This document shows positions 2,813-30,589 of a stretch of DNA of 64,000 nt, in pieces (position 1 is the stretch's first letter; every line of letters starts with the position of its first letter). The notes under the pieces are model-generated. The model was given only the letters and a program-made list of their open reading frames with translations, did not search any database and was not told the origin of the DNA. The stretch is taken from IMG/VR virus record IMGVR_UViG_3300029319_000004, positions 1 through 64,000 of that record, one strand, 5' to 3'. The stretch comes from a virus. The position numbers were made by a program, and so were the translations under genes.

Positions 2813-3319
2813 ATGAGTAGGTGGGGCAAGCCAATCAAAAACAAGAAGCGAAAAGATCCTAGGTATTTCTTAAATGAAAGTATTGAGCTAGATGAGGCAG
2901 ATAATGGTTTTGAGTATCAAGGATACCGACAAGGAAACGTGCCGGCAGCAAAAACACCATATGAACGCTATGCACAGCAAGGCTATGGAGAATTCGAAGG
3001 CGAACCGCCCATGGGGCCATATACGGATAAAGCAGCAGAACAAGCTATCCGTGACAAAGAATTTGGGGATGTTGTCGAAACAGACAGAGCGCTTCGAGCA
3101 TATGCTGATCTCGCTTTAGATAAAAGCCGGCCCTACCGATCTCGCCGCATTGGTCTTACAAGACTTGAGATTGCTGCGGGAGGAAGCGGTCAAACAGCTG
3201 CCAATGCGCAAGCTTTACTAGATGCCGTAAGAAAAGAATTACACAAACAAAAAATGAAAAATCGCGGAGGGCTATCTCCCGCATCACCTGAAGAGTCGGA
3301 AATGGACGCGCTTCCTTAA
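2813..3319 (+). CDS. hypothetical virion-internal protein (N-terminus KRKDPRYFLNE)
   Basis: AAGGAG RBS; basic leader ending in FLNE. Confidence 0.55.
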   Translation: MSRWGKPIKNKKRKDPRYFLNESIELDEADNGFEYQGYRQGNVPAAKTPYERYAQQGYGEFEGEPPMGPYTDKAAEQAIRDKEFGDVVETDRALRAYADLALDKSRPYRSRRIGLTRLEIAAGGSGQTAANAQALLDAVRKELHKQKMKNRGGLSPASPEESEMDALP

Positions 3320-3329
3320 GGAAAAAGCA

Positions 3330-3752
3330 ATGAAACTAGATAACGAAAAGCTTAAGAATATGGTCATGGAAGTCATGATATCTATCCTAGAGGAAGACGA
3401 AGGCAAGATTATATGCCCTAATTGTGGCCATCATAATGATGCTGACGTTGATAAGTGTTCGAACTGCGGCCACTCTAGAAGCAAAGGCAACTGGAAAAAA
3501 GCAAAAAAAGAAGAAATGCAAGAAGCCTTACCAGCCGCTGCAGCTGCTTTAGGTACAGCCGCCAAAGGTTATGCGGCAGGTGAGGCAGCGGATAGTGTTG
3601 CTAGCAAAGGTATAAAAAAAGCAAAAGAAATGCTTCGTCTAAGCGATCCTAAATCAATGGATAAAGGATCCCGCATTGCTTTGCAAAAAATATCTAGACT
3701 AACCAAAAGAGTTGAAAGGATTGAAACCGCACTAAAGAGGATTTTACCATAA
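3330..3752 (+). CDS. leader-bearing protein with double zinc ribbon
   Basis: MKLDNEKLKNMVMEV leader; CPNCGHHNDADVDKCSNCGH. Confidence 0.6.
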   Translation: MKLDNEKLKNMVMEVMISILEEDEGKIICPNCGHHNDADVDKCSNCGHSRSKGNWKKAKKEEMQEALPAAAAALGTAAKGYAAGEAADSVASKGIKKAKEMLRLSDPKSMDKGSRIALQKISRLTKRVERIETALKRILP

Positions 3753-5365
3753 TGAAAACAAAAGTACTTTTTGAAAACTGGCGCCACCATTTAAAAGAAG
3801 CTAAATCTGATCGCGAGATTTTAGATGCCGCGGCCAAAGCTTTGGATGTGTCGACCAAAGAATTAATCAGCATGGGTCCGCTTGAGGCAGAATTTGTAGC
3901 TGATTTTCTAGAAAAAAAAGGGCTTGATGACGCGATAAAGATACTTCGACGTCGATCCGAGGTGTGGGCTAGCGTCGACGCAGCTGAAGACGAAGCTTCT
4001 CGCGAGCGTCTTGCTCTTCGACAAAGAAGAGCAGATGCGCAAAAAGCCGGCCGATCGGAACCCCAAGACGGTGTAAGAGATCCGCTTAACCCTCTTGGGA
4101 CAGCGCCCATGGGTAGCGGTGAAGATCAATCCTTAGCAGATTATAAGGCCGGCCGCGTACAAAGAGCTATAGATAAGAAGAAAGCTAAGGAGCTTGCTGC
4201 AAAAAAAAGAAAAGCATTTTTGAGAGGCGCTCGGTCTAAAGCCTTTTTAGACCTCAAAAAATCGAAAGGACCTGCAACCTCTGCCCAGCCGGCTTCGAGG
4301 CCGCGGGTGCGGCCGTTGGAGGAAGAATCTTATCGCATGGTAAAAGATCCGATTAGCGGCAAGCGCAGAATGATGCGAAGCGATGAGCTTGGCGATGCCA
4401 TGGCGCAGGTTGATGATGAGCTGCCTTTGACAGCTGCTTTCCCTTGGATGCAAAGCGTTATCGACGATCTTAAAGACGACGAGTTTCCTGATAAGGAAAA
4501 AGCTATACAAGCTTTAGCAAAACAATTAGGCATGTCTATCAAAACTATGCCTTCTGACATGGATGAGGAACCAACAATGAGCGAAGTAAAGACAATATCG
4601 AAAAAGAAATTCGAAACAACTCTAGAGAACCTTGTGTTTGAAGAACTAGCTAGAGTTTTTATGGAACAAGAAAATCAACCTTCGGAAAAAGAATTGAAAG
4701 AAATTGCTGCGCGAATAATGAATTCCGTTAATAAAATTTTAAAATCAAAGAAAATATACACTCGGACCGGGCCAAGTGTCGGCAATTTTGAATATGACTA
4801 TGCTTTGGGAATAATGGGGGTGAAGCTTGGTAAAACAGTTTTAGAATTATCAAAAGTAGCCGGCTACAAGCTTGCGAGCCTTGAAAGTTTTGTTGCAAAA
4901 ATGCTCGCGAATATTCCTTCGAACCAGCTTAAAAAGTCTTCGGCCGTTGGTGGTAGCACTCCTTTTATGTTTGTTCCTTACAACGTATGGAAGCAACAAC
5001 AAATAGCAGCGCATAAATCGCTTATGAATCAACTTTCGAAAAAAAGAGCTGAAAAGAAAAAGAAGAGCAAAGGTAAGGACTCTCAAGGGGTTACAAGGAA
5101 AGATGTACTTAATTACCTAGACAGCGTTTTTCCTAATTTATCCAAAGATCAAAAAAGTCGACTTCTAGCTTTTGATGGATCCATAAGAAGAGTTGATGGT
5201 AAGAGTATTTTTACCCCTTCGGATAAAATGAAAAAAATGTTTCCTAACGCTAAGCCAGTTCAAGTCTCTGGGCCACGGATAAACGACGCAGATACATTAG
5301 CTATTTTAAAAGCCGCAGGTAAGCCAACAATGCCCACAACGCGTCGGACCGCCGGAGCGGATTAA
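3752..5365 (+). CDS. leader-bearing putative internal head protein
   Basis: MKTKVLFENWRHHLKE leader; several internal L-x-E junctions. Confidence 0.55.
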   Translation: MKTKVLFENWRHHLKEAKSDREILDAAAKALDVSTKELISMGPLEAEFVADFLEKKGLDDAIKILRRRSEVWASVDAAEDEASRERLALRQRRADAQKAGRSEPQDGVRDPLNPLGTAPMGSGEDQSLADYKAGRVQRAIDKKKAKELAAKKRKAFLRGARSKAFLDLKKSKGPATSAQPASRPRVRPLEEESYRMVKDPISGKRRMMRSDELGDAMAQVDDELPLTAAFPWMQSVIDDLKDDEFPDKEKAIQALAKQLGMSIKTMPSDMDEEPTMSEVKTISKKKFETTLENLVFEELARVFMEQENQPSEKELKEIAARIMNSVNKILKSKKIYTRTGPSVGNFEYDYALGIMGVKLGKTVLELSKVAGYKLASLESFVAKMLANIPSNQLKKSSAVGGSTPFMFVPYNVWKQQQIAAHKSLMNQLSKKRAEKKKKSKGKDSQGVTRKDVLNYLDSVFPNLSKDQKSRLLAFDGSIRRVDGKSIFTPSDKMKKMFPNAKPVQVSGPRINDADTLAILKAAGKPTMPTTRRTAGAD

Positions 5366-5763
5366 TGAAAGTCAATAAAGCAAAGCTTAGAAAGCTGGTA
5401 GAGGAAAAAATTGGCGAAATCTTTTCCGAGGGAGATCTGTACGGTGGGGACTCGCCTTATGAAACAATGGGTGATCTTAAGTTTTCTGGCGCGCTCGATC
5501 AATCTGCCATGCCTGAGCAAGGACCTGCAGGTTTAATAAAGCAAGCAAAGGCAATTCTTGATAGTCTTCGACAAAATTCTTCTGCCGGCGTCTCTGGCGA
5601 GAAAGATGTTGCACTTAATCGTGTCTTAATTAGAAGAGACATAAGAGACCTAAGCGAGCTTTTAGATGAGCTTGAGGCTCACATGGGTGGTGGTCAATCC
5701 GAGCTTGAAGCTCGTGATCATGATGACTTCTCTTCTCAAAAAGAAAAATTTATGGCGCCATAG
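5365..5763 (+). CDS. leader-bearing hypothetical protein
   Basis: MKVNKAKLRKLVEEKI leader; TAATG coupling. Confidence 0.55.
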   Translation: MKVNKAKLRKLVEEKIGEIFSEGDLYGGDSPYETMGDLKFSGALDQSAMPEQGPAGLIKQAKAILDSLRQNSSAGVSGEKDVALNRVLIRRDIRDLSELLDELEAHMGGGQSELEARDHDDFSSQKEKFMAP

Positions 5764-5766
5764 TTT

Positions 5767-6099
5767 ATGGAAATAACCCTTGAACAGCTTCGACATATAA
5801 TTAAAATTGTCAAAGAAGGCCCTATCGAGGGTGGTATGGATGGCACAGGTGTTGGAGTACATCATGTGCAATCTGGTATAAGAATGCATCGCGGCCGAGG
5901 TCCTGAACGAGAGCGGCGCGTTGCCTCTGGTCAAGATACTCAAATCGACGAAGTCGATGCAGATGTGGGCGCAGACATGTACACCCTAACAACAACACTT
6001 GACGACGTGCCTGAACGTATCGCAAGAGGTCATGCAAAAACGCCTAGGACTGTCGACGACCCGGGTCACCCAATTTACATATACGAAGAAGATTTTTAG
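5767..6099 (+). CDS. leader-bearing hypothetical protein
   Basis: MEITLEQLRHIIK leader. Confidence 0.55.
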   Translation: MEITLEQLRHIIKIVKEGPIEGGMDGTGVGVHHVQSGIRMHRGRGPERERRVASGQDTQIDEVDADVGADMYTLTTTLDDVPERIARGHAKTPRTVDDPGHPIYIYEEDF

Positions 6100-6174
6100 G
6101 TTATAATAACCTACTTATAAAGAGAAAAAAATATTTTTTGGCTGCGCCTTTTTCATGGCACCAAGGAGAAACAA

Positions 6175-6366
6175 ATGAAAATCACACAAAAAGAATTAAA
6201 ACATATTGTACAAGAAGAACTTACATCGATTATTAATGAAGCTTTTCCTGATATTGGTCGCGACTATAAAAAAATACCTGTTAAGCCAACAATTGAGGAT
6301 ACACTTGAAGATATCTTAAGGCGCTTAAACACAATAGAAACTAAACTTAAAATAAAAAGAGGATAA
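6175..6366 (+). CDS. leader-bearing small protein
   Basis: MKITQKELKHIVQEEL...IINE; AAGGAG RBS. Confidence 0.6.
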   Translation: MKITQKELKHIVQEELTSIINEAFPDIGRDYKKIPVKPTIEDTLEDILRRLNTIETKLKIKRG

Positions 6367-6370
6367 ACAA

Positions 6371-6493
6371 ATGAAATCATTATTTAAAAAACTAGCGAGC
6401 TTGTTCAAGAAAACGTGCTGCTGCGTAGAAAATGCATGCAAAAGTTGTTGCGCCTGTTGTAGCTGCAGCTGTGCCTCTTGCCCAGGGTCCTAA
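6371..6493 (+). CDS. 40-aa Cys-rich metallothionein-like peptide (not in ORF track)
   Basis: MKSLFKKLASLFKKTCCCVENACKSCCACCSCSCASCPGS; fills the gap between the neighbouring genes (4 nt and 14 nt). Confidence 0.65.
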   Translation: MKSLFKKLASLFKKTCCCVENACKSCCACCSCSCASCPGS

Positions 6494-6507
6494 ACAAGAG
6501 CGCTCTA

Positions 6508-6795
6508 ATGAAAATTACAAAACAAGAATTACATCAAATAATATCTGAAGAGATCTCCGCTGCTGTGTTATCATTAGCAGAGTCAAAACTAGACAAGGTG
6601 AACTGGGATAGAATATCTTCAAGATATAAAGCTGTCTTGCTTCACAAAGGAGACGTCGACGCGAAAGATGTTGACAATATCGTACAACAAAAAATATCAG
6701 TTGCTAAAATGCAGCCAAATGGATTAGAAGATCTTAGAAAAGATGTGTTAAAAATATATAATTTTGACATAACAGACAACAAGGAGACAGCATGA
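6508..6795 (+). CDS. leader-bearing hypothetical protein
   Basis: MKITKQELHQIISEEI...SLAE; ATG 6508 chosen. Confidence 0.6.
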   Translation: MKITKQELHQIISEEISAAVLSLAESKLDKVNWDRISSRYKAVLLHKGDVDAKDVDNIVQQKISVAKMQPNGLEDLRKDVLKIYNFDITDNKETA

Positions 6796-7019
6796 ATATA
6801 TCAAAATCTAGATTGATACAAATTATTAAAGAAGAAATTGACATTTTTGAGGCCGAAAAAAAGGCTTTGCATGCAGGAGCTTCAAAATACGACAAAGACC
6901 ATCCAGGTAAAAGCTGTGATGAAGCTCATGGTGGCCTTACTCACGAAGAATACTCGGTCGACAGAAAACCAATGCTAACTCGTGAAGAGCAAAAAATGTT
7001 AAGCGAAATGGACTGGTAG
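6792..7019 (+). CDS. leader-bearing small His/Cys protein
   Basis: MNISKSRLIQIIKEEI; HPGKSCDEAHGGLTH. Confidence 0.6.
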   Translation: MNISKSRLIQIIKEEIDIFEAEKKALHAGASKYDKDHPGKSCDEAHGGLTHEEYSVDRKPMLTREEQKMLSEMDW

Positions 7020-7045
7020 CCTGTATATACCACAAGGAGAAAAAA

Positions 7046-7642
7046 ATGAAAATTAATAAAAAAATATTAGAAGCCTTAATCGAAGAAGAAATTCATACGC
7101 TTATTAAGGAAGGTTTTGCATCGTCTCTTGTGCGAGGGCTAACAAAAGGTGGAAAAAGAAGCAACTTTTTAACAGACTTTCTTTCCTCTACTTTAGTTCC
7201 TCAAGTGGCAAAAAATGCTCATACAGCTGCAAACGATTTAGTAAAAGCTCTAGAGGGAATGAAAAACAATCAACAGTTTTTAGCAATTGCTAGAGATAAA
7301 GATTCTGAGGGTCAACCTGCTTTACCAAATGTGCGAAGCGCGAGGGATGGAAAAAGAATATCTATTCATGGTATGCACAAAGCTGCTAAAGCGATGGTTA
7401 AAGATATAGAAATTATGGCCGCACAACTTGGAGCTGATGCTCCAAAGCTTTCTGGGGATGACGCGCCAGATGCTTCTGAACCTGAAGGCGCGCCTCAGGA
7501 TGCACCTCAGACGCCAGCAGAAGATGCACCAGCCGATGACCGCTTTGGCGGTATCGTTGAAGGGCAAACTATTGATGAATCCATTAACATGCTCAAAAAA
7601 AGAATTAAAGCAAAGTTTAAAAAACTAAAATCTATTTCTTAA
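7046..7642 (+). CDS. leader-bearing hypothetical protein
   Basis: MKINKKILEALIEEEI; AAGGAG RBS. Confidence 0.6.
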   Translation: MKINKKILEALIEEEIHTLIKEGFASSLVRGLTKGGKRSNFLTDFLSSTLVPQVAKNAHTAANDLVKALEGMKNNQQFLAIARDKDSEGQPALPNVRSARDGKRISIHGMHKAAKAMVKDIEIMAAQLGADAPKLSGDDAPDASEPEGAPQDAPQTPAEDAPADDRFGGIVEGQTIDESINMLKKRIKAKFKKLKSIS

Positions 7643-7925: not shown

Positions 7926-8024
7926 GTGCGCTCCTTATGTCTTGTGTACATTATTAAAGATAAGAACTAGTTATTGATAAGACAATGAAAATATCATACA
8001 AAAATGAAATGTGAGGGCTCATGA

Positions 8025-9920
8025 ATGAGAAAGGCGATTATAGCTTGTTTGATGATGTTATCTGCGTGCAACTCGTGCTCAGAAGCGTTCATGAGCGAGC
8101 CGCCTGCCTACAATCCTGATGTTCCACAAGCTATAAATGATGTAGAAAGTCTAGAAGATGAAGACGCAAAAGAAGAAGTTGTTGACCCCTCTTCTGTATA
8201 TCCATTTCCAAACAATGAGTGCGTTCAGTGTCAGTGGTATTTTTGCCCACCACTAGATTCAGTTTGGCAAAAACAAATATGTATTGATCGATGTGAAGAC
8301 CCGCCAGTTATTTTATATGAGGGCACATGTGAACAATATTTACAGTGTGATCCACAGCAATATCTTTTAGAGCAGGTAGATTGTACAACAGAAGATGGAT
8401 ATCCTGGCACTCAAAACAAAGTTTGTAACAAGGGACAAATTCAGTATACTGACTGTGTAACTGACTGCGAAGAGGAGTCATGTAATTACATAGATGATGA
8501 TTGTGATGGTGAAATAGATGAGGGGCAACTGAATGAATGTAACGAGTGTGGAATCGTTCCGCCGGAACAGTGTAATGGTATTGATGATGACTGCAATGGT
8601 TTTACAGACGAAGACTTAATACAGCCTTGCTATACAGCTTGTGGAGCAGGATTTGAAACATGCTCGGATGGAAATTGGATATCTTGTACTGCTCCTCCAG
8701 AGTTAGAAGAGATATGTGATGGCCTGGATAATGATTGTGATGGTCAAATAGATGAGGATCTTGAGTGTGTATGCACAATACAGGACGTTGGTGTCTTGTT
8801 CCCTTGCGATGAAGATCCTCTTTTATGCGGCCAGGGATATAAAACTTGTCAGTGCATTGATGACACATGCACATCTTTTACTATGTCAGATTGCTTTGCT
8901 TTGTGTTATTGGCTGCCTGATAACAATCAGGTTTGTGATCCTCTTGTGGGAATGCCACTAGAACAAGAAAAATGTAATAACCATGACGATAACTGTAATC
9001 AAGAAATAGATGAAGATCTGTTTGCTTCGTGTTATACAGGACCTGAAGGCACATTGATGGTTGGGATATGTGAGCCTGGCTTGATGACATGTGATGCTGG
9101 CACCTGGGGTAGTTATGAAGAGGAGCAATTTATTCCATTTTACTGTGCTGGTGAAGTCGTACCACAAGAAGAAATTTGCAATGGCATCGATGATGACTGC
9201 GATGGTATTATTGACTGGGGCGAAGAAATGAAAGATACCGATGTTCTTTTTATCGTCGATTGGTCCGGATCCATGAATGATGAAATTGATGCAGTAATGA
9301 TCGCACTTAATCAATTTGCTCAAGATTTTAGTGACGAAGAAGTTATTAAGTGGGGTTTGATTCGTGGACCGGCAGCAATACCTCCTGATTACGATGACGA
9401 AAGATTAGAGTTTTATCAAGAACTAGTAGGGTTCAGCGACTTTCTTAGTTCAATGTCAAATTTAAATTCTGATTCTCCGTCAATGAATACATCTATGGAA
9501 ATGCTTTTAGATGCAATATATTTGTCTGTTAGTAACATTACATCTAATCTTTTTGCAGCCATAGCAGATTTTGAATGGCTAGGAATAGTTAGTCCAAATA
9601 TAAAAGTTGTAGATTCAGAGCCTTCATTAGATAATTTTACAGTGAATTGGAGGCCTGGAGCTGATAGGATAATAATTGTTTTTAGCGACGAACCTCCACA
9701 AAGCTATCTTGTTCCAGAACTGACTGTTGAAGATGTTAAAGGTGCTGTTTCTGGAACTCCTCAGTTAAAACTATTTACATTTTCTAAATCTAATCATAAA
9801 TCAAAGTGGGAAGAGATATCTATTGCTGGCAATGGCGAGTGGTACAAACTTACTAACAATCCTACTGAGATGTATGCTAGCTTAATAAGCATACTTGATG
9901 GCATATGTAAGGAAGAATAA
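8025..9920 (+). CDS. lipoprotein with five CxxxDDDCDGxxDE (MopE-type metal-binding) repeats and C-terminal vWA domain
   Basis: Lipobox LSA-C15; repeats such as EICDGLDNDCDGQIDE; MIDAS motif DVLFIVDWSGSM. Confidence 0.8.
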   Translation: MRKAIIACLMMLSACNSCSEAFMSEPPAYNPDVPQAINDVESLEDEDAKEEVVDPSSVYPFPNNECVQCQWYFCPPLDSVWQKQICIDRCEDPPVILYEGTCEQYLQCDPQQYLLEQVDCTTEDGYPGTQNKVCNKGQIQYTDCVTDCEEESCNYIDDDCDGEIDEGQLNECNECGIVPPEQCNGIDDDCNGFTDEDLIQPCYTACGAGFETCSDGNWISCTAPPELEEICDGLDNDCDGQIDEDLECVCTIQDVGVLFPCDEDPLLCGQGYKTCQCIDDTCTSFTMSDCFALCYWLPDNNQVCDPLVGMPLEQEKCNNHDDNCNQEIDEDLFASCYTGPEGTLMVGICEPGLMTCDAGTWGSYEEEQFIPFYCAGEVVPQEEICNGIDDDCDGIIDWGEEMKDTDVLFIVDWSGSMNDEIDAVMIALNQFAQDFSDEEVIKWGLIRGPAAIPPDYDDERLEFYQELVGFSDFLSSMSNLNSDSPSMNTSMEMLLDAIYLSVSNITSNLFAAIADFEWLGIVSPNIKVVDSEPSLDNFTVNWRPGADRIIIVFSDEPPQSYLVPELTVEDVKGAVSGTPQLKLFTFSKSNHKSKWEEISIAGNGEWYKLTNNPTEMYASLISILDGICKEE

Positions 9921-9921
9921 A

Positions 9922-10413: not shown

Positions 10414-10896
10414 ATGAAGTTAATAATTGAGAACTGGCGTCGGTTTGTCAACGAGAACAAAGAAGAGGATGATAAACCATCTAGCAAAGACATTGAAAAT
10501 GCAATCAATGACAAGCTGGATGCTGAAGGTGGCGCTGCAGGTTTAGATCCTTTAGTTGCTGCGGCAAAAAAAATCGATCCAGAAGTTACAGAAGATGAAG
10601 TTAAGGAAATGCTGGATGCTATGTCCAACGTTGCCCAGCATAAAGAGGGCGACTACATTGACGAGGATGGATTGCAAGAGGCAGTTTCTATCTACCTAGA
10701 AGCAAAACAAGGCATACTTGAAGAGAAAGAAGGAAAAAAAGATGCTTGCTATCACAAGGTAAAAGCAAGATATACGAAAAAAAAAGACGGTAAAAAAGGC
10801 AAGTGGCCGTCAGCGTATGCATCTGGAGCTTTAGTTAAATGCAGAAAAGTTGGCGCAGCCAACTGGGGTGAAGGCGGAAAAAAGAAAAACAAATGA
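10414..10896 (+). CDS. leader-bearing protein with basic Cys-containing C-terminal module
   Basis: MKLIIENWRRFVNE; KKDACYHKVKARY...WPSAYASGALVKCRK. Confidence 0.65.
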   Translation: MKLIIENWRRFVNENKEEDDKPSSKDIENAINDKLDAEGGAAGLDPLVAAAKKIDPEVTEDEVKEMLDAMSNVAQHKEGDYIDEDGLQEAVSIYLEAKQGILEEKEGKKDACYHKVKARYTKKKDGKKGKWPSAYASGALVKCRKVGAANWGEGGKKKNK

Positions 10897-11642
10897 ATGA
10901 GGCAGATCCAAAAAAAGGAACTGGTAAGAAACCGAAAGGTTCTGGTCGACGTTTGTACACTGATGAGAATCCAAAAGATACAGTCAGCGTAAAATTTTCA
11001 ACCGTTCAAGATATAAAAGATACTCTGTCGAAACAGTCTTTTAAGTCTAAATCTCACAAGCGCCAATCACAAATAATAAATTTAATACACCAAAGAGTTA
11101 GGGTCGCTAAAGGAAGAACAAAAGACCCTGTTAAGAAAAAAAGACTTGCAGCTGCTTTTAAATATATTAGCAAAAGGAAAGAAGCAAGCAAGAGGAAAAC
11201 ACAAAGAATGAAAAACGAATCTTTATATTTAGAAAAAATTATATTAGAAGAACTAGAAAACATTCTTGATGAAAGATGTCAAAAGGGATATAAAACACAC
11301 CCCAAACGTAAGACTAAAAAAATGTTCGGGAGAACATACAGAAACTGCGTTAAAGCAGAGGGTGTCGAAGAAGATGATATTCTAGACGAAGAATTAGAAG
11401 AAGATCTTAATAAGTGGTTTAGACAAAACAAAGGAACAGGCTGGGTAGACTGCAATACTTGTCGAAAAGACAAGAAAACAGGTCGTAAAAAATGCAGCCC
11501 TTGTGGTCGTAAAAAACGCTCTGGTGGAAAAAGAAAAAGATATCCCGCGTGTCGTCCAACACCAGCTGCTTGTGGAAAAAGAGGTAAGTGGGGCAAAAAA
11601 TCTAAAGCTGAAAAAAGGCGAAAAAAGAAGAGGAAGCAGTAA
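10893..11642 (+). CDS. highly basic multi-module phage protein
   Basis: K/R-rich modules separated by acidic L-x-E linkers; WVDCNTC...CGR...YPACRP. Confidence 0.65.
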   Translation: MNEADPKKGTGKKPKGSGRRLYTDENPKDTVSVKFSTVQDIKDTLSKQSFKSKSHKRQSQIINLIHQRVRVAKGRTKDPVKKKRLAAAFKYISKRKEASKRKTQRMKNESLYLEKIILEELENILDERCQKGYKTHPKRKTKKMFGRTYRNCVKAEGVEEDDILDEELEEDLNKWFRQNKGTGWVDCNTCRKDKKTGRKKCSPCGRKKRSGGKRKRYPACRPTPAACGKRGKWGKKSKAEKRRKKKRKQ

Positions 11643-12643: not shown

Positions 12644-12647
12644 AATT

Positions 12648-21558: not shown

Positions 21559-21559
21559 A

Positions 21560-22642
21560 ATGGCAGTAAAAGTTGTTGATGGTAGCAGTGTGCATAGAAA
21601 TTTTGATGGAATATTAAAATCTTTTCTTCCATATGCAAAAGACAAGCTAGGGTATAACAAACCAGTTGATATACAGCTAGTATCGGATCCTCACAATGCA
21701 AAAGATCCATTTGGAAAAACTGCTTACTATGACCCAAGCTTAATGAAGATAACTGTTTTTGTTGATAAGCGACATGTAAAAGATATTTTAAGATCAATTT
21801 CACATGAGCTAGTTCATCATAAACAAAACTGTGAAGGTAGGTTATACTCACCAGCAGGTGAAGGTTATGCGCAAAATGATCCTAATTTAAGAGAAATGGA
21901 AGCGGAAGCCTATTTAGAAGGTAACGGATTTCTTGTTAGAGATTTTGAAGACAAACTCAAAGGAGACAAACAAATGAGAAGCAGAGTCTTGGATGAAAAA
22001 ATTAAAAAAACTGTAAGAAAAATAATTGCAGAAGTTAATAAAATAGCAGAACAAGATGCTATGGAAATGGGTAATGAGCCTGCAGGTTCTATGGAGGATG
22101 ATTCTATTCAAGCAGCTTTAGAGCCTATTGTTGGCGCTGACAAAGTTGCAGAAGTTATGGCTGCTCTTGCTTCAGCTGGAGTTGAGCTTCCAATGAAAGA
22201 AGCTGATGTAAAAAATCCAGGACCCTACATTGATGGACCTAGGGCGAAAGCTGGTGTTGATGATGATGGTGATGGGGTTCCAAACAAAGCAGATAAAAAC
22301 TCCACCGATGGTGATATTCAAGAAAAAATGAAAAAAGATTCTCCTGACCGTCGACCTTCTGATACTCCTTCTGATCGTCTTAGACCGCTGGAGGAGAAAG
22401 ATGACAAAAAGGATGTCGAAGATGAAGAGCAGTACAATCTTCGCACTGCAAAATCTGTAGGCGAGAAAAAGCCAAAAGAAAAAAAGAAGCAGGTTGCAAA
22501 AGATGAGGGCCTTAAAGAAGATATGCATGAAGAGGACGAGGATGTTAAAGAAGGTCCCGCTGTATACATGCAAGAAAACTGGGTGCGCAAACCCTTAAAC
22601 GAGAGAATTTACAAAACACTAATCAAAAAATGGTGTAAATAA
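21560..22642 (+). CDS. zincin-like protein with acidic low-complexity C-terminus
   Basis: SHELVHHKQ (HExxH) and EAEAY; ATG 21560 chosen. Confidence 0.6.
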   Translation: MAVKVVDGSSVHRNFDGILKSFLPYAKDKLGYNKPVDIQLVSDPHNAKDPFGKTAYYDPSLMKITVFVDKRHVKDILRSISHELVHHKQNCEGRLYSPAGEGYAQNDPNLREMEAEAYLEGNGFLVRDFEDKLKGDKQMRSRVLDEKIKKTVRKIIAEVNKIAEQDAMEMGNEPAGSMEDDSIQAALEPIVGADKVAEVMAALASAGVELPMKEADVKNPGPYIDGPRAKAGVDDDGDGVPNKADKNSTDGDIQEKMKKDSPDRRPSDTPSDRLRPLEEKDDKKDVEDEEQYNLRTAKSVGEKKPKEKKKQVAKDEGLKEDMHEEDEDVKEGPAVYMQENWVRKPLNERIYKTLIKKWCK

Positions 22643-22653
22643 GGAGACTAATC

Positions 22654-22962
22654 ATGGCTAACCCCAGAAGAAGAAAACAAAGAAAACTTGCTAGACTGAA
22701 AGCTGTTAGAGTCAAGCAAGGACAAAGCTTAAGAGAGGCGATTGCAGAGGCTCAAGAGCCAGAAACTGCGCCGCCTGCTAAGCCAGAACCAAAGCCAGAG
22801 CCTGCACCTGAACCAGAGCCTGCAGATAAGCCTTCTGTTTCTGATGCTCCAGAGGCACCAAAGGTAAAAAAAAGTGCAAAGGCAAAGCCTGCTCCAAAGA
22901 AGGCTGCTCTAAAGAAATCTGCGCCAAAATCAGCATCAAAAAAAGCTAAAAAAGAGGAATAA
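22654..22962 (+). CDS. Pro/Ala/Lys-rich histone H1-like protein
   Basis: PEPKPEPAPEPEP linker; PAPKKAALKKSAPKSASKKAKK tail; AAGGAG RBS. Confidence 0.55.
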   Translation: MANPRRRKQRKLARLKAVRVKQGQSLREAIAEAQEPETAPPAKPEPKPEPAPEPEPADKPSVSDAPEAPKVKKSAKAKPAPKKAALKKSAPKSASKKAKKEE

Positions 22963-22965
22963 AAC

Positions 22966-25293
22966 ATGGGCGGAGGATCTGGTGGACACATGTGGCATCC
23001 ATTTGATTGCCCTGATGTAAAAACTGGTAAAGACCTACTACTGACGTTTGAAAAAAGCGCAGAGTGGTTAAGTCAGAACGCCGCGTCTCTTAAAGTTGAT
23101 GGTGCTAATTTAAGTTTTCGTCTTATAAAGAACCCTAAAATGTCAACAGGATATGAGTTTGCTGTTGACAGAGGATCAACTTCTGGAGCTGCAGGGCCTT
23201 ATGATCTTGCTGGTGTTACAGCAAGGACTGCACACTTGCGCTTTGTTAACAAAAAAGACCCAAGCAAGCCACATGGTATGGTTGATGCTACTAGTAATCT
23301 TTTGAGTATTTTTAATCGAGCGCTTCCTTCTATCTTAGAAGAGCTAGAAAAAATTGGAATGCTAAAAGATGAAAACATGGGTCCTGAAGGATTATATTTT
23401 AACACTGAATATGTCAATATGGAAACTAATGTTAAAAAATATCCTTTTAATTTTATAGCACTTCATGGAGTAAGAAGGTTTAAGAGAGTTACTCCAAAGA
23501 AAAGAGCTTTCGAAGAAGTTTCACTACCTCAAGCTGTTATTGATTCTATTGCAAAAAAAGCACATGTGTGGGGTCAACAACACAATCCTCCTTTTAAAGT
23601 ATATGGAAACATACCAACTAATCTTAGCAAAAAACCGGACTGGAGGTCGACACTTAAAAAACAATTAGAAATTAATTTTGGAATACCTTCAGATGCCGAT
23701 GAAAACGAAAATCAAAAACCTATCAAAAAAACAGATAGTTTAGAAAATTGGCTTATCAATATTAAAAAAAATCCCATTAGGGATGTTGTGTCACTTAAGC
23801 CTGAAGCCGCAGAAAAACTAAGAATTCCAAGTTCTCAATTTCCAAATGCAAAAAAAATATATATGGCTGTTTTATCTGGCGCGCCACTTTTAGGCCCAGG
23901 AGGGTTAGTAAGCACTGTTGAGGATGCCGGTAAGATAGCTGATTGCACAGCTATGTGGGAAGCAACAAGAGTTGTTGGAAATGAATTTTTAGACGCATCA
24001 GAATCTGAAGATTTTGGGCCTCTTGTTAGAAGTCAAGGCGACGGAAAAGGAAAAGAAAGAGATCAAGAAGAGGGAATACGAATAGATCCTCAAGGTTGGT
24101 GTGGTAATACTTCATTTAAGTATTCTGGCCAATTTATTATAGATAATCTTTCTAGTGGCTTCGGTGTGTCTGAGAGTCTCTTGCGCGAGCAACAAGAAGG
24201 ATCACCCATAAAAAAAGTTATTGCTATTTACCCAGGTCGTTTTCACCCTCCCGGCAGACATCATGCTGCTGCATACAACTGGCTAAAGTCAAACTTTGGT
24301 GAAGAAGAAACTTATATTGCTACATCTGATAAAGTTGTTCCACCAAAATCTCCTTTTACGTTTGAAGAAAAAGAAATAATATGGTCTGGACATGGTGTAC
24401 CATCCGAGCGCGTTGTGAGAGTAAAAAATCCATATAAGGCTCAGGAAGTTTTAAATCAACATGATCCAGAAACTACTGCAGTCGTGTACATGGTGGGATC
24501 AAAAGACATGAAAGAAGATCCAAGATTTAGCAATGTTGGTGGAACTTTAAAGAGTGGCCGAGCCGCCTATTTAAAATCATTTGAAGAAGAAAAGCAAAAT
24601 CTACAACCTTTGTCCAAACATGGTTATTTAATTGAAGCCCCTCACATGTCTTTAGCTGTTCCTGGGTATGGAGAGATGTCTGGTACTACATTAAGACAAT
24701 TTTTAGCAGATTCTGATGCTGATGCGTTTAAAGCAGTTATGGGATTTTATGATGATCAAATTCATGAAATGATTAAAAAAGTCCTGAAGGAGGGAGAATC
24801 CAGATCAAATTTTTTAACAATGGAGTCCCTATTTTCTTTGGTTGACGAACTATTGTTAGAAAAACAAAGCATGTCTGATAAAGTTAGTAAAAAAATAAGT
24901 TATTTAATGAAAAAAGAAAAAAAACCACAGGATCAAGCAGTAGCGATTGCATTAAGCATGCGCGATAGAGGCGAGTTAGCAGAGCAAGAGCTAAATGAAC
25001 TAGATGTGGAAAAGGCAGAAGAGCAAATTACAAATATAATGGCTCGTCTTATGATGCAAGACCCTCAGCTTAAACAGTTGCCGGCGGATAGAATAACAGC
25101 AGCAGCAAGAGAGTTAGGTGAAATGTCTGCTGAGCAATTAGAACAAATAGCAAACACAGAAGCACCATCTGCTGATCAAAAAGCTTCTCAAATTGCACAA
25201 GATCTTAAAAGTGAAGCCTCTGGCGCAGGCGGCGGAGGAGTATCTGGATATGGGGCGCCCGCGTTTAGAAGAAGGAGAAAAACAAATGAATAA
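22966..25293 (+). CDS. ligase-like (KxDG) domain + cytidylyltransferase-like domain fusion
   Basis: SLKVDGANLSF; IAIYPGRFHPPGRHH (HIGH-like) and EMSGTTLR (KMSKS-like). Confidence 0.6.
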   Translation: MGGGSGGHMWHPFDCPDVKTGKDLLLTFEKSAEWLSQNAASLKVDGANLSFRLIKNPKMSTGYEFAVDRGSTSGAAGPYDLAGVTARTAHLRFVNKKDPSKPHGMVDATSNLLSIFNRALPSILEELEKIGMLKDENMGPEGLYFNTEYVNMETNVKKYPFNFIALHGVRRFKRVTPKKRAFEEVSLPQAVIDSIAKKAHVWGQQHNPPFKVYGNIPTNLSKKPDWRSTLKKQLEINFGIPSDADENENQKPIKKTDSLENWLINIKKNPIRDVVSLKPEAAEKLRIPSSQFPNAKKIYMAVLSGAPLLGPGGLVSTVEDAGKIADCTAMWEATRVVGNEFLDASESEDFGPLVRSQGDGKGKERDQEEGIRIDPQGWCGNTSFKYSGQFIIDNLSSGFGVSESLLREQQEGSPIKKVIAIYPGRFHPPGRHHAAAYNWLKSNFGEEETYIATSDKVVPPKSPFTFEEKEIIWSGHGVPSERVVRVKNPYKAQEVLNQHDPETTAVVYMVGSKDMKEDPRFSNVGGTLKSGRAAYLKSFEEEKQNLQPLSKHGYLIEAPHMSLAVPGYGEMSGTTLRQFLADSDADAFKAVMGFYDDQIHEMIKKVLKEGESRSNFLTMESLFSLVDELLLEKQSMSDKVSKKISYLMKKEKKPQDQAVAIALSMRDRGELAEQELNELDVEKAEEQITNIMARLMMQDPQLKQLPADRITAAARELGEMSAEQLEQIANTEAPSADQKASQIAQDLKSEASGAGGGGVSGYGAPAFRRRRKTNE

Positions 25294-26140
25294 AGATGAA
25301 GCACTTCAAGAATTTAAATTGAGAAGATTTATTCGCCAAGCGATTAAGCTTCGTCAACACAAATTGAACGAAGATCAAAAAAGAAATTTAATTGAAGAAC
25401 AAAAATTAAGAAAAGTTATTAAACACCTTTTAAGAGAGGGGGAGACGGATACAGATACTGAACCTGTACCATATAAATCAACTGCCATGAATCTTATTAA
25501 TGATGTTTTTGGTGAGATCTTGCCTGTTGTTAAAAAAGGTTTGCGCAAGCTAACATCAGATCCAGAAGAGCGTGTTAGTTATCTAGATCATGTTCTGAAT
25601 AAAATTAAAAACATGTTTGATGTTCTTAACGCTTCTCAAGAAGCAGGAATGGCACTGGCTGAACAAAGAATTGGAATTAAGATTGAAGACCCGGATGAAG
25701 AAGCAGAAGTTGGCGAAACGCCAGACTTTGACGATCCAGATGCTCCAGCGGAAGAAAAACCTAGTAAAGAAGAGGAGGAAGAGTCTGAGTTTCAAAAATT
25801 TGCGATTGCAGGTAAGGATGAAACCGGCGCACGAATTGCTTTTGACACAATTGCAGGATCTAATATTGAAGACAACATTAGAAAACTAGTAAGACTTCTT
25901 GGTGATGATGAGAAAAGAAAAGAGGCACAAGAGTATTTTCTTTATAACTTAAACTTGTTTGCCATTGGTTATGAAAAAGATTTGGCTAGTGAAATTGGTC
26001 AAGAGCCTGCGTTTACTGAGCCTACAATGCCAAAGCCTGCAGGGGCGCAAGTATCACCAGAGGCTGAAGGTGGGGGCATAGGCGAAGAAGAACCCATAGA
26101 AGACGAGCCAGAAGCTCCACCTGAGCTGCCAGGAATTTAA
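25286..26140 (+). CDS. acidic hypothetical virion protein
   Basis: AAGGAG RBS; LRKVIKHLLRE segment. Confidence 0.6.
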   Translation: MNKDEALQEFKLRRFIRQAIKLRQHKLNEDQKRNLIEEQKLRKVIKHLLREGETDTDTEPVPYKSTAMNLINDVFGEILPVVKKGLRKLTSDPEERVSYLDHVLNKIKNMFDVLNASQEAGMALAEQRIGIKIEDPDEEAEVGETPDFDDPDAPAEEKPSKEEEEESEFQKFAIAGKDETGARIAFDTIAGSNIEDNIRKLVRLLGDDEKRKEAQEYFLYNLNLFAIGYEKDLASEIGQEPAFTEPTMPKPAGAQVSPEAEGGGIGEEEPIEDEPEAPPELPGI

Positions 26141-26141
26141 T

Positions 26142-26516
26142 ATGTGGGAATCAAAACGTTCCAGGCATAAAAAAAAACAAGATGAAGACAGCTATTATAG
26201 CATGTCAAATAAACTAAAACAAGAAGGAAGGGTCGACGAGAAGTTTGAAATTCAGTTGTCAATGTTAACTCTTGAGGAGATTTTAGCGCTTCGATTAGAG
26301 CTAGCTGCAAAAACTGTTAACTACAAATTGTATGGAACAAATATTTGGAATAATTTGCCAGAACTTGTAAAAGACGCAGTTTTAAAATACGCTTACGTTG
26401 CGGGAAAAACAAAGAACGAAATGGCAATGTTTTTGGGTATAGACAAAAGTCGATTAAGAAAACTACTTAAACAATATGATATACCTAATTACTTTATGAG
26501 GAAAACAAATGACTAA
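26142..26516 (+). CDS. Fis-like HTH protein
   Basis: C-terminal LKYAYVAGKTKNEMAMFLGIDKSRLRKLLKQY resembles HTH_8 (A-x2-LGI-x-R-x2-L-x2-KL-x2-Y). Confidence 0.55.
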   Translation: MWESKRSRHKKKQDEDSYYSMSNKLKQEGRVDEKFEIQLSMLTLEEILALRLELAAKTVNYKLYGTNIWNNLPELVKDAVLKYAYVAGKTKNEMAMFLGIDKSRLRKLLKQYDIPNYFMRKTND

Positions 26517-27270: not shown

Positions 27271-27274
27271 AACT

Positions 27275-30200
27275 GTGTTTTTAAAAATAGAAAATTCGAA
27301 ACAACTTACAGAGCAGCGTCGTCCTACTGAGGAAGAGGAAGAGCAGATTAAGAATATGGCTAAAGGCCAAAGATCTGGAGAGGGCAGATTAGCAAGTTTC
27401 AAAGGGATAGATATTAGTGATGGTCAAACTTTGCCCAATCTAGTGATCATGAAAAAAACCGGCATAGTAACTTCTGGTCAGTTGAATGTGAAAGGAATAA
27501 ACGATTATATCAATACATGGATAAGCAAAAACAAAAATTACGACAAAGGCGATCGAGGTGCTAGAATTCAAGGCGCCAAGGCCTTTAAACGTGTAGTTAA
27601 TAAATTAAAAACAGGCACAACTGCAAAACAATATTTATACAATACCAATGGAAACGGCAAAAAAATTATTACAAAGCTAAATGAATTTATTAAAAAAGCT
27701 GAAGCCGTACAAAATCCTTCAAAGGAGGAACCAAAAGTGGATAGAAAATTTGATGATTGGACAGAGGCGAGCGACGCGATGTTGGCCGCAGGACATTTAT
27801 TTAGCTCCCTAGAAGTTGATGGCGTGTCATATGTTTATGATAAAGACCTGGCCCCTCAATACGGCGTGAAAACGGGCGATTTTGAAGCGGCGAATGCGAA
27901 CTACGTTAGTGCAAGTTTTGCAAACGAGCAGACGCTGGGGCAGGTATCCATGCCTGATGAGTCCGAAGAAGAAGAGGAAGTAACAGAAGGCAGTTATCTA
28001 TCTGCTGCCCAAATGAAAAAAGCAAAAGATGAGGTTGATGACGCAGCTGCGGATGAAAACTATCCTGGATTTAAACATAGATTTATGGAAACACCTGCAG
28101 GAAAAGTAACAAATCATATTTGGCGTGTCGTTTTAGAGCAAGATCAGATTGAAGACATCAATCCCGAGAATACACGGAAGGCCGCGAGAGCTGACTATAT
28201 GAAAATTCTTGGAATGGCAAAAAAGGCTTTGGGTGTAGAGTCCACGGAACCAACTGAGCCTCGCATAGGTTCTGGTCCAATTGCTGGTCAAACTACAACA
28301 GATGCGAAACGTTATCAAATAAAGGGCACAACAATCATTCTTGACAGCTGGAGTGAACTTGACACGCTCCTTAAGGATGACAAAGGAAAGAAGGCCTACC
28401 AAGACTCGACTCTGATAATAGTTAAAAGCTCAAAGGGCGAGACCGAGATGAGCGATTCTATTGTCCCAAAAGGCTTATCGAATACATTTACTAGACGAGG
28501 CTATTATGATTGGAACGAGAAAAAGATCGCTATCGATGGCTCGAAAGGCGCCTGGGTTAGACGTAGACGATCTGGCTCTGGAAAGAAAAGAGTTTACGGA
28601 ACATCACAGCGTTGGCGTCCAAGAGGAAAAGATCGAAGAGCACAATACAAGCAGTTTTACAAAGACCTTCAAAAAGCAGGTCTTTTGAAGCTTTTATTTA
28701 AAAAAGAAAAAATACGTCCGGACGAAATTAAAAAAGTTCTTGGCGAGGCAGTTGATGGTTTAGATTTTGCTTGGGGTAAATTACACAGAAATGCTTACAA
28801 AGAGCTTCTTAAGGTTGTGCAAGCTTCTGGCGCAAAATCAATTGAAGATTGGCGAGCGGGTAAAACTTCTGCAGACGAAGAGCCAAAAAAATCAGGTGAT
28901 AGCGCTGCAGCTGCAAGTGCAACTACTGAGAAAGAACTAGAAAGATTAAACATTAAAAGAAAAGCCACTTTTCAACGCTACGGGGGAGAATATACGCCGT
29001 TGACAGCAGAGCAGGTGGCAGATAAAGAATTTTTAAAAACTATCAGCCAAAGGTTTGGTGTTACACAAGCAGAGCTTAGTCAATTAATAGCAGGCCAAGA
29101 GGCAAAAACAGCAAATATTATGAAAGGCAAAAGAGCCGATCAACTAAAAAGAAAAAAAGCTGCTCTTACACTGGCTAGAGAAGTTAGAAAACTTAATGGA
29201 TACATTAATGGTACATTCAAGGATAATGAAATACGAGAATTAATTCAGAAGTATGCAAGCTCCGAAGAGTTTGGAAACACCGGTATAAAAAGAAACTTAA
29301 ACCTTCTTGCAACTAGATATCAAAAATTTTCTGGAAAAAGCTTGATTGATCATCTTGTTGATGATGGTCATCCTGAACTAGCCAATATGGTTAGGTATGG
29401 TGACCAAGCTGCGCTGGGCGCTGGCACATCTCAAGGTGTTCTTAGAGGCAGAGGAACTGACATAATAGATCCTGATCTTGACGACGATGCGGCCGCGCTT
29501 TTTAAAGCAGCTAGAGGTGCCGGTACAGATGAAGAAACTATTAAAAGAGTTATAATTAAGAACAAAAATAAACTAGTTCAGTTGGCCCAAGCCTATAGAA
29601 AATATACACAAGAGGATGCGCCTGGCGCTCCAATTACTGATGAGCATGCAAATCTTATTACAATGCTTTATGATGAGGCTGACGGCGATGAAGAAAAAGC
29701 GTTTGCTAGAAGAGTACAGAGAGCACTTAGAGCTAGCGCTGCTCAAATTGATACCAGTTTAAGAGAAGGAAAAAATCCAATGCCAAAAATTAATTTAAAA
29801 AAGCTAAAAGCTTTATTCAAAGAAGAGTATGACAGACGGCTCAAAGAGCAGTCGACAACTGGCGGAATGACTCTACCAAGCGGACAAGAGATTGGCGCAA
29901 TGTCAATTGATCCAGCAGACTTAGAGCAGATGCTTGATGAGCCGCATCCTGATTCTTCACAATTTGAACCTGTTTCGCAACAAACAACTAAAACTAGCAG
30001 TGGCTTGGTTTACACTCCTGAACGGAAAGCTTTTATTAGGTACATCAAAGGCCTGCGCAAGAGAGGTAAACTATCAAGAGCGCAAGAAATGAAATTAAGA
30101 CGCGCTGTTTTTAGCAGAAAATATACTCCAAAAGATATGGCTGGTAAAGAGATTACAAAACTTATCAACTCTCAAGTTGTAGCTAAGATGAATCACGATC

Positions 30201-30589
30201 AAATGGTTGCAAAACCTTTGGCTGGAATAGAAGGTGCATTAAGCGGAAAGAAAGCATCTGTAAGTGATCTTAAGGCTTCTCTTAAAAGATTGCAATCTGG
30301 CCCTCAAAATAATAGAACAAAAAGATCTATTGCTCGTGTAAAAAGAATGATTGCACGTGCTGAGCAAAGAGGATCAGATGTTGACGTTATGAAAATTGCA
30401 AATTCTGCTTTGGATAATCTTGGAAAATCTAAAACTGCAGCCGAAATGGAAGCTAGCTTAAAGAAAATGAAGAGTTCTAAAAATGCTAGCTCTGCTGAAA
30501 TGCAGAGAGCAATTGCTCGTGGTGAAAGAATGTTAGCTAGAAAACGTCAAGAAGAGAATCCATCTAAACAGGTTGCTAGAGATCTATAG
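27275..30589 (+). CDS. large multi-module protein containing annexin repeat(s)
   Basis: DAAALFKAARGAGTDEETIKRVII...LAQAYRKY...NLITMLYDEADGDEEKAF; degenerate upstream repeat YQKFSGKSLIDHL; internal leader MPKINLKKLKALFKEE. Confidence 0.65.
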   Translation: MFLKIENSKQLTEQRRPTEEEEEQIKNMAKGQRSGEGRLASFKGIDISDGQTLPNLVIMKKTGIVTSGQLNVKGINDYINTWISKNKNYDKGDRGARIQGAKAFKRVVNKLKTGTTAKQYLYNTNGNGKKIITKLNEFIKKAEAVQNPSKEEPKVDRKFDDWTEASDAMLAAGHLFSSLEVDGVSYVYDKDLAPQYGVKTGDFEAANANYVSASFANEQTLGQVSMPDESEEEEEVTEGSYLSAAQMKKAKDEVDDAAADENYPGFKHRFMETPAGKVTNHIWRVVLEQDQIEDINPENTRKAARADYMKILGMAKKALGVESTEPTEPRIGSGPIAGQTTTDAKRYQIKGTTIILDSWSELDTLLKDDKGKKAYQDSTLIIVKSSKGETEMSDSIVPKGLSNTFTRRGYYDWNEKKIAIDGSKGAWVRRRRSGSGKKRVYGTSQRWRPRGKDRRAQYKQFYKDLQKAGLLKLLFKKEKIRPDEIKKVLGEAVDGLDFAWGKLHRNAYKELLKVVQASGAKSIEDWRAGKTSADEEPKKSGDSAAAASATTEKELERLNIKRKATFQRYGGEYTPLTAEQVADKEFLKTISQRFGVTQAELSQLIAGQEAKTANIMKGKRADQLKRKKAALTLAREVRKLNGYINGTFKDNEIRELIQKYASSEEFGNTGIKRNLNLLATRYQKFSGKSLIDHLVDDGHPELANMVRYGDQAALGAGTSQGVLRGRGTDIIDPDLDDDAAALFKAARGAGTDEETIKRVIIKNKNKLVQLAQAYRKYTQEDAPGAPITDEHANLITMLYDEADGDEEKAFARRVQRALRASAAQIDTSLREGKNPMPKINLKKLKALFKEEYDRRLKEQSTTGGMTLPSGQEIGAMSIDPADLEQMLDEPHPDSSQFEPVSQQTTKTSSGLVYTPERKAFIRYIKGLRKRGKLSRAQEMKLRRAVFSRKYTPKDMAGKEITKLINSQVVAKMNHDQMVAKPLAGIEGALSGKKASVSDLKASLKRLQSGPQNNRTKRSIARVKRMIARAEQRGSDVDVMKIANSALDNLGKSKTAAEMEASLKKMKSSKNASSAEMQRAIARGERMLARKRQEENPSKQVARDL

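Follow-up and report, generated by a model that had tools for sequence, protein, structure and literature searches.

Two short leader peptides on unrelated proteins of a marine T4-related phage, candidate capsid-targeting propeptides for a large set of exchangeable cargoes

Why should a series of otherwise unrelated proteins, encoded close to each other in one viral genome, begin with one or the other of two short amino acid sequences? The question is raised by the first 64,000 nucleotides of the IMG/VR virus record IMGVR_UViG_3300029319_000004, indicated below as the window; the whole record, of 180,711 bp, has direct terminal repeats, is rated complete and holds nearly all its genes on the + strand. 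The two sequences are indicated as leader A and leader B, and the proteins following them as cargoes. An initial annotation had described the region 2813–30589 as a 28-kb array of about 20 tagged proteins, packaged in the virion and injected as an effector arsenal. The analysis reported here finds that the leaders are N-terminal, are selected as peptides, carry a prohead protease motif at a fixed position, precede hundreds of exchangeable cargoes and are confined to genomes encoding a T4-type protease. The explanation judged rather probable is that both are propeptides of the T4 capsid-targeting type, which would bind the assembling core and be cut after Glu14, leaving the cargo in the head, to exit with the DNA.

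Leader profiles were made from 64 (A) and 69 (B) sequences, and the genome was scanned with them in six frames. The consensus of leader A is MKLLFENWRRFINE, that of leader B MKITKxELxxIIKEE. Leader A has eight matches, all between 3.7 and 15.4 kb, with scores of 25–40 bits (starts at 3752/3761, 10414, 12648, 12904, 13341, 14032, 14412 and 15420): they are the eight starts initially annotated, were found again by a second profile search, and are well separated from the runner-up in the genome, which scores 6.7 bits. Leader B matches N-termini in the window at 5365, 6175, 6508, 6792, 7046 and 11642, and the annotated internal copy near 12284 is also detected (28–42 bits), the next-best match in the genome again reaching 6.7 bits; one more leader B gene is found outside the window, at genome position 92750. 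The same annotated list also included 3330 and 5767, whose scores with the B profile do not exceed 4.5 bits and which are considered weak. Two degenerate copies inside genes had escaped the initial annotation: a leader B, MKNESLYLEKIILEELENILDE, at 11208–11273 within the 10893 gene, and a vestigial A-like sequence, LRKWSNYVDRLLNE, at 16428–16469, corresponding to the fusion joint of the 15420 gene. The start at 18243 (MLKKWKQFLSE), described as a variant of leader A, is missed by the profile. Its orthologue in a relative (57% identity; L108, relatives being indicated by L numbers) begins with the canonical MKLLFENWRKLLKE, the alignment being offset by three residues; since the orthologue carries the canonical leader, the 18243 start is accepted as a genuine, shortened and degenerate leader A.

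Four other annotated copies escape detection by the profiles and were rejected as leaders: two leader B variants, at 16950 and at 26509, and two internal copies, near 18161 and near 29780. For 16950, three distant orthologues (77%, 56% and 50% identity) show neither a leader B nor a hydrophobic-x-Glu triplet at the corresponding position, and two of them lack even a KSQLK-like start; the leader is therefore discarded. Two of the annotated payloads are affected: the "zincin", whose sole basis is an HEFGH motif in the 16950 protein, stands behind this unsupported leader, and the "annexin" corresponds to a sub-threshold match in a 1104-residue protein without a supported leader. From 20.6 to 30.6 kb no supported leader is found by the profile scan, and genes 20620, 21461, 22966, 25193 and 26142, conserved in relatives for the most part without change of order, have the character of a backbone block. 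The supported array spans about 15 kb, from about 3.75 to 18.8 kb, and includes 15 firmly tagged genes and two weak ones: both the 28-kb extent and the number of about 20 proteins had been overstated. Outside the window, at genome positions 166705–167253, a 182-residue protein begins with MKLLNNMRSILSKWRNFLLAE: this start is longer and undetected by the profile, and shares the W-R-x-F-L-x-E ending with leader A and with the degenerate 18243 leader.

The distribution of the leaders outside this genome was evaluated in IMG/VR by using degenerate DNA patterns, which found at least 119 and at least 120 loci for the two leaders, when about 7 and less than 1, respectively, are expected by chance, as estimated from pattern degeneracy. 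The counts on leader-bearing loci reported below are drawn from the matches listed, for which 2.28 Mb of sequence were fetched. In these, the profiles find 228 copies of leader A and 382 of leader B, located at a median of 7–9 codons past the upstream stop, and therefore at true N-termini; internal copies are 2 of the 228 for leader A and 19 of the 382 for leader B. One of the loci, L154 (IMGVR_UViG_GVMAG-S-1030632-100_000001), features three canonical leader B starts on a 17-kb contig binned as a giant-virus metagenome-assembled genome, and is probably a misbinned phage fragment.

The leader A logo, when limited to the positions not forced by the search pattern, shows L4 (86%), K/R10, Y/F/H11 (89%), L/I/V12 (88%) and E14 (83%), while from residue 15 onwards no residue exceeds about 25%. 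The initial annotation had noticed that leaders end in (I/L/F/V)-x-E, and this proves to be a positional rule: in 164 of 201 distinct leader A proteins (82%) the triplet [LIVMF]-x-E ends at residue 14, and in 94% it ends at residue 19 or before, against a cargo background of 2.3% per position; most exceptions have an insertion of one or two residues and retain the triplet. Leader B, MKITKSQLKQIIKEE, contains I12-x-E14, and in 49% of the proteins a weaker continuation provides a second hydrophobic-x-Glu, ending at residue 21–22. Leaders A and B are unrelated, and have in common a length of 14 residues, a cut-like triplet at 12–14 and a sharp loss of conservation past the Glu. Both may be described as short amphipathic helices, with Trp/Phe and basic residues. 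Signals of the Sec, Tat or lipoprotein type require a basic n-region and, behind it, a hydrophobic core in which at least about seven residues are uncharged; both leaders are instead charged throughout (E6, R9, K10 and E14 in A; K5, K9, K13, E14 and E15 in B).

What is conserved is the peptide. When leader copies from the same genome are compared, third codon positions show the lowest identity, 0.41 in A and 0.57 in B, and second positions the highest, 0.69 and 0.80, and synonymous codons are used in variety, Arg being encoded by CGC, CGT, CGA, AGA and AGG, and Leu by TTA, CTA and CTT. Since third positions are the least conserved and Arg and Leu codons vary, selection is seen to act on the peptide, rather than on RNA or DNA.

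The cargoes, in contrast, are extremely diverse. Building leader HMMs (hidden Markov models) and counting payload families across relatives had been proposed with the initial annotation; 503 distinct payloads are found, forming 332 clusters, 270 of which are singletons, and nine clusters mix A- and B-tagged members. Leader A proteins have a median length of 193 residues. Pfam analysis of 101 cluster representatives identifies 22 families, with one or two members each, among which protein kinase, 2H phosphoesterase, RNase T, RNase H-like, AAA_33, nucleotidyltransferase, 5'-nucleotidase, Amidase_2, transglutaminase-like, papain-like toxin domain, DUF192 and PGDYG. The proteins behind leader B, with a median total length of 110 residues, are small and charged, and are composed of short shuffled modules. 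On a larger scale, a search of 1.84 billion proteins with the leader A profile found at least 754 representatives of 50%-identity clusters (E<=0.001), nearly all matching at residues 1–20.

Unrelated cargoes stand behind one leader and the same cargo is found elsewhere without it, as expected of leaders that would be portable. The 20620 family, a module annotated as HVA1 and Amidase_2 all occur in both forms: Amidase_2, for example, is leaderless in the endolysin-type gene 18804 of the window and follows leader A in L025. The NT5C-type 5'-nucleotidase carries leader A in this clade, and other N-terminal extensions, ending in L-x-E or V-x-E, in Flavobacterium phage vB_FspM_immuto (hereafter immuto) and pelagiphage HTVC008M. 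Several leader A proteins contain two copies, the second being an internal LFENWRxYLxE that divides two parts of the cargo, and internal copies in general fall exactly at the joints of fused cargoes. Complete relatives contain from zero to eight leader A genes, usually in arrays distant from the head genes; content and order of the cargoes vary among relatives, while backbone genes are largely collinear. The annotated scheme of a modular tag with exchangeable cargo is thus borne out, at the comparative level, by hundreds of unrelated cargo families, by cargoes found with and without leader, and by leaders at fusion joints.

The triplet at residues 12–14 directs attention to the head genes, located well outside the window. 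The source genome encodes both a prohead protease of the Peptidase_S77 family (PF03420; genome positions 103844–104290, within the gene 103757–104392, 117.6 bits) and a major capsid protein of the Gp23 family (PF07068; 115075–117000, 192 bits), surrounded by a portal-sized gene, small head-module genes and a gene for a scaffold-like acidic protein (113937–115055). The closest capsid protein is that of immuto (MW353176, 47.7% identity), followed by those of Microcystis phage Mel-JY01 and Rhodothermus phage RM378, cyanophages being at about 30%. Because of this ranking, the phage is assigned by its capsid protein to a distant branch of the T4 group, the "far-T4" marine myovirus lineage, and its host is probably a marine member of the Bacteroidota. 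Substrate-like sites are found in the head proteins themselves: the N-terminal part of the capsid protein contains LLE34, LLE50 and LKE59-A, just upstream of the region aligning to mature T4 gp23*. T4 gp21, which cleaves after Glu in L/I-X-E, itself carries LIE-9 (PMC9026906), and the N-terminus of the protease described here has a nearly invariant L6-x-E8. In most of 30 relatives, the gene following the protease encodes a conserved protein of about 140 residues, starting with MKKSELKKxLKPLIKECIKE and featuring invariant E20 and E24 and a nearly invariant E34; the resemblance of its start to leader B is weak (hhalign probability 21%). In the source genome the gene in this place, 104393–104755, encodes a putative core protein of about 120 residues. 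Leader genes are not enriched near the protease: five canonical leader B sequences in 30 loci of about 3.4 kb each approximate the genome-wide density.

Leaders and protease do occur in the same genomes. The protease is found in 31 of the 50 parent contigs of leader loci, and in all 11 of those that are at least 90% complete. Of the 19 contigs without it, 18 are incomplete (19–68% by CheckV); the remaining contig, a provirus that is 80% complete, has a single match, L038, in which the frame is limited to 13 residues and the Arg is missing, so that it is probably a chance hit. Leaders are thus confined to genomes encoding the T4-type protease.

The principle of capsid targeting in T4 has been known since the 1990s and is textbook matter. 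The T4 capsid-targeting sequence, present on IPI, IPII, IPIII and Alt, is removed by gp21 (PMC9026906, PMC3012670, PMC5694885); it corresponds to the first 10 residues of IPIII, with determinants for targeting at 4 and 7 and for processing at 8 and 10 (PMC9026906). Reviews have already proposed that it lets T4-like phages load various proteins (PMC9026906, PMC3012670). In the T4 record, ipII and ipIII start with MKTYQEFIAE, and ipI with MKTFKEF...ITE. An Asp at the cleavage position prevents processing in T4, while targeting is retained. The layout is similar to that of leader A, with an initial MK, an aromatic-x-x-aromatic motif and a final hydrophobic-x-Glu, leader A being stretched by four residues (F5-x-x-W8, L12-x-E14). 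Both phages, moreover, carry a short N-terminal tag on unrelated proteins, and encode a gp21-type protease and a gp23-type capsid protein. They differ in tag length (10 residues in T4, 14 here) and in the number of tagged genes (few in T4, about 15 here). The system described here, known from sequence alone, also differs from that of T4 in featuring two leader families in one genome, many enzyme families as cargo, and the internal reuse of leaders at joints. In both genomes the tagged sets are away from the head module: in T4, ipII and ipIII adjoin the lysozyme gene e and nudE, and ipI adjoins 57B, while the array described here leads into genes for a NUDIX protein and an amidase endolysin. 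This positional likeness (NUDIX, endolysin, with 2H phosphoesterases also present among leader A cargoes) is suggestive only.

Other known systems share part of these features. As for the variable cargo of the IPI* type, a conserved leader is here combined with a cargo that changes fast between close relatives, a behavior which for IPI*, acting against a type IV restriction enzyme, has been interpreted as an arms race. The scale is larger here by orders of magnitude, when the at least 754 clusters of leader A alone are considered, and the carriers are marine phages, whose closest cultured relative grows on Flavobacterium and whose cargoes are mosaics of small shuffled modules. In the giant phages phiKZ, 201phi2-1 and SPN3US, inner-body and ejection proteins are cut after Glu, their propeptides are thought to target the prohead, and paralogues can share identical N-termini (PMC5694885, PMC10052503). 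Those propeptides are mostly longer than 100 residues and end in A/S-x-E (PMC5694885), while the leaders described here have 14 residues and L/I/V-x-E, and therefore fall outside that class. Closer to home, immuto encodes a T4-type protease and several genes beginning with MKKSQLRQIIKEAL or MKKSELVKLIKEEL, which are B-like (among them immuto35A_175, 176, 186 and 190); this shorter, diverged leader reaches no more than 16 bits with the B profile, and leader A is absent. No paper was found that contains the leader motif, nor one that ties a capsid-targeting sequence to marine phages or metagenomes. The principle itself is known; what is new here lies in the leader families and their scale, in enzymes as cargo and in the polyprotein joints.

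In the mechanism proposed, the leader would form an amphipathic N-terminal helix, with aromatic or hydrophobic residues at 4/5, 8 and 11/12, able to bind the scaffolding core of the assembling prohead, so that the cargo would be enclosed. The Peptidase_S77 protease would then cleave after Glu14 of the hydrophobic-x-Glu triplet, and after the internal leaders of fused cargoes. Cleavage would free the mature cargo inside the head, from which it would exit with the DNA at infection. A capsid-targeting role accounts for the fixed triplet, the end of conservation at Glu, the restriction to protease-bearing genomes, portability, the leaders at joints and the small charged B proteins. Of the initial annotation, the part reading the leaders as capsid-targeting sequences cut by the prohead protease fits every test run, all at the sequence level; an arsenal of injected proteins, devoted to host takeover or anti-defence, would be a further step, as core binding, cleavage, presence in the virion and ejection are themselves inferred.

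Several observations weigh against this interpretation. Because the peptides are too short for significant alignment, the leaders show no significant homology to MKTYQEFIAE, with which the layout alone is shared. Leader A is absent from five cultured relatives searched genome-wide, with a positive control; tblastn of 30-residue leader stretches against cultured phages gave no match or chance-level ones, and a word-based homologue search with residues 1–40 found close orthologues only, none from cultured sources. No virion proteome for immuto or for the leader clade was found in the literature. Some cargoes are large (509–537 residues) or are ordinary enzymes of metabolism or lysis (nucleotidase, NUDIX, amidase), with no obvious need for injection. 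Within cargoes, [LI]-x-E occurs at an observed/expected ratio of 0.98, against 1.09 in the other proteins of the phage, a weak difference that is confounded by helix preferences. About 85–100 kb separate the array from the head genes, a distance for which the remote ip genes of T4 offer a parallel, and co-occurrence with the protease could reflect the shared ancestry of a single clade. Finally, the protease rule does not by itself call for a FENWR core as strongly conserved as this one, which must therefore bind a partner.

The identity of that partner is the point on which the most serious rival differs. The leaders might dock the enzymes to some other intracellular structure (a membrane, a replication or nucleotide-metabolism complex, a phage chaperone), the enzymes acting in the producing cell only and the hydrophobic-x-Glu being incidental. 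The excess conservation of FENWR fits such docking, as do the amphipathic character of both helices, with their Trp/Phe and basic residues, the several cargoes that are nucleotide-metabolism or lysis enzymes (NUDIX, HAD/NT5C, amidase), and the presence in the genome of a GroEL-like protein, of which the N-terminus only was read. Docking leaves unexplained, however, why conservation should stop right after hydrophobic-x-Glu, at the same position in two unrelated leaders, why leaders should be found at fusion joints, and why B cargoes should be tiny, charged mosaics, similar to T4 internal proteins: it is considered unlikely. Much less credit is given to the leaders being recognized, in place of the prohead protease, by some enzyme that modifies or matures the proteins, similar to the leaders of RiPPs (ribosomally synthesized and post-translationally modified peptides). 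A single conserved N-terminal tag on many unrelated proteins does fit this pattern. Yet the radical-SAM family (PF04055), the only one searched, is absent genome-wide and was found in 14 of 14 control genomes, and a radical-SAM maturase tag was rejected for the source genome; nor does any conserved enzyme gene travel with the arrays, as the conserved genes nearby (8025, 20620–26142) belong to the backbone and arrays are also found far from them. Highly improbable, finally, is that the shared 5' ends are nucleic acid features (translation-initiation or regulatory RNA sites, or patches for cassette recombination) encoding a functionless peptide: cargo content and order do differ between relatives with a collinear backbone, and the longest exact run between two leader copies, 14–20 nt, could aid illegitimate exchange as a by-product, but the free variation of synonymous codons and third positions stands against it, and internal in-frame copies keep the peptide with neither start codon nor ribosome-binding context.

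If the capsid-targeting interpretation holds, a leader A or B and a cut after Glu14 would provide a simple rule to recognize the in-capsid proteins of abundant ocean phages, and a catalogue of candidate first-minute effectors and counter-defence proteins, most of them without a known family. T4 capsid targeting would then be no peculiarity of coliphages, but a loading system of ancient origin and general use, open to great expansion, and the leaders could act as packaging tags for engineering marine phages or phages of Bacteroidota. More tentatively still, the two leaders might allow one to tell from sequence alone which proteins a globally widespread marine lineage related to T4 packages and probably injects: hundreds of cargo families would be loaded, fusions would be cut at internal leaders, and takeover or counter-defence functions would be delivered as plug-ins, far beyond the scale of T4.

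The single genes of the array, all on the + strand, are described here in order. The first, 3330–3752, encodes a 140-residue protein with a Zn ribbon recognized by Pfam and a B-like N-terminus without profile support: it is possibly a diverged leader B member. It is followed by the leader A gene 3752–5365 (537 residues), where the leader starts from residue 4 (MKTKVLFENWRHHLKE) and scores 25.2 and 30.4 bits; no match to its cargo is found in Pfam, PHROG or Atlas. A run of leader B genes comes next: 5365–5763 (132 residues, 29.0 bits), 6175–6366 (63 residues, 42.1 bits), 6508–6795 (95 residues, 33.5 bits), 6792–7019 (75 residues, 38.4 bits) and 7046–7642 (198 residues, 28.4 bits), with the 110-residue protein 5767–6099, whose weak B-like N-terminus scores 4.5 bits, between the first two. 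Within this run, at 6371–6493, a leaderless frame of 40 codons features 11 cysteines in its second half (a run of CCC, CC and C-x-C).

The leader A gene 10414–10896 (160 residues, 37.6 bits, phrog_727) encodes a mosaic cargo ending in a basic Cys module, which is found in 365 cultured phage records, nearly all from T4-like cyanophages. The next protein, 10893–11642, is very basic, 249 residues long and has no N-terminal leader; its internal degenerate leader B, which precedes a Cys-rich basic module, can be aligned with a leader B protein of L067, starting from the first residue of the latter. Gene 11642–12643 (333 residues, phrog_7595) is a fusion of two cargoes, with one N-terminal and one internal leader B (12284–12349), scoring 29.8 and 32.5 bits. 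In records of Roseobacter phages, the module behind the internal leader bears the annotation of HVA1 family protein; it corresponds to the standalone, leaderless gp56 of Pelagibacter phage Kolga, and is also present in several podophages.

In the open frame 12648–12902 (26.0 bits) leader A is followed, after 21 codons, by an in-frame TGA, past which the frame continues open to just before the next gene. It had been annotated as a selenocysteine candidate; the frame may be a pseudogene, contain a recoding site or represent a selenoprotein candidate. Gene 12904–13329 (141 residues, 33.3 bits) has a Cys-rich cargo, and its 57–66% identical orthologues all carry leader A. For the 235-residue protein 13341–14048 (36.7 bits), the cargo of which belongs to phrog_3170, the leader is kept in nine aligned orthologues, with M1, E6, W8, R9, L12 and E15 invariant. 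An AlphaFold2 model of it, obtained with 10 sequences, has a mean pLDDT (predicted local distance difference test) of 52.7, too poor for a fold search, and shows residues 2–14 as a helix, with low confidence.

Among the annotated payloads, SET, NUDIX and Zn ribbon are recognized by Pfam, and the HAD-type match is weak. The SET domain (47.7 bits) is in the cargo of the leader A gene 14032–14415 (127 residues, 39.8 bits), and the NUDIX domain in that of gene 15420–16949 (509 residues, 37.4 bits), where it is fused to a preceding cargo of about 350 residues: in relatives, each half is a leader A gene of its own (L018/L013 and L070). Between them, gene 14412–15416 (334 residues, 33.2 bits) gives no more than a sub-threshold, restriction endonuclease-like lead (Atlas feature score 0.81). 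The HAD-type protein is encoded by gene 18243–18803 (186 residues), which features the degenerate leader A described above and a weak match to Pfam DUF2608. Beyond the array, gene 20620–21558 is a leaderless copy of a cargo family, phrog_36119, which carries leader A in four relatives: the alignments begin at residue 5–9 of the query and at residue 21–23 of the subjects, straight after the leaders of the relatives.

Part of the array is preceded by an 8-mer, ACTATTTA, present in 22 copies on the + strand of the genome, of which four are in the window (10388, 17849, 20608 and 34537). Fourteen of the 22 are located 8–62 nt upstream of a start codon, where about 1.4 are expected. They precede, among others, the scaffold-like gene (113937), genes 117105 and 119815, and the array genes 10396, 17861 and 20620, and may represent a promoter element that part of the array has in common with structural genes. 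No enrichment of the T4 late promoter TATAAATA is seen upstream of genes in the source genome.

Some other features of the genome may be mentioned. The first 2000 nucleotides of the window have a G+C content of 54%, against about 36% in the remaining genome, and include a frame of 293 residues. Outside the window, a 534-residue frame at genome positions 158244–159848 has an N-terminus that, judged by eye, resembles a GroEL-type chaperonin. At 8025–9920 a very acidic protein of 631 residues is encoded, which contains 45 cysteines, begins like a lipoprotein and includes three metal-binding repeats of the MopE type (Pfam, 61 bits); the gene is kept beside leader arrays in relatives L013, L025, L088 and L108. 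The 775-residue protein 22966–25293 contains a cytidylyltransferase/NMNAT-like domain, and has relatives in Mel-JY01, HTVC008M and immuto, where the genes bear the annotation cytidyltransferase or NadR; the surrounding block, 20620–26516, is largely collinear among relatives.

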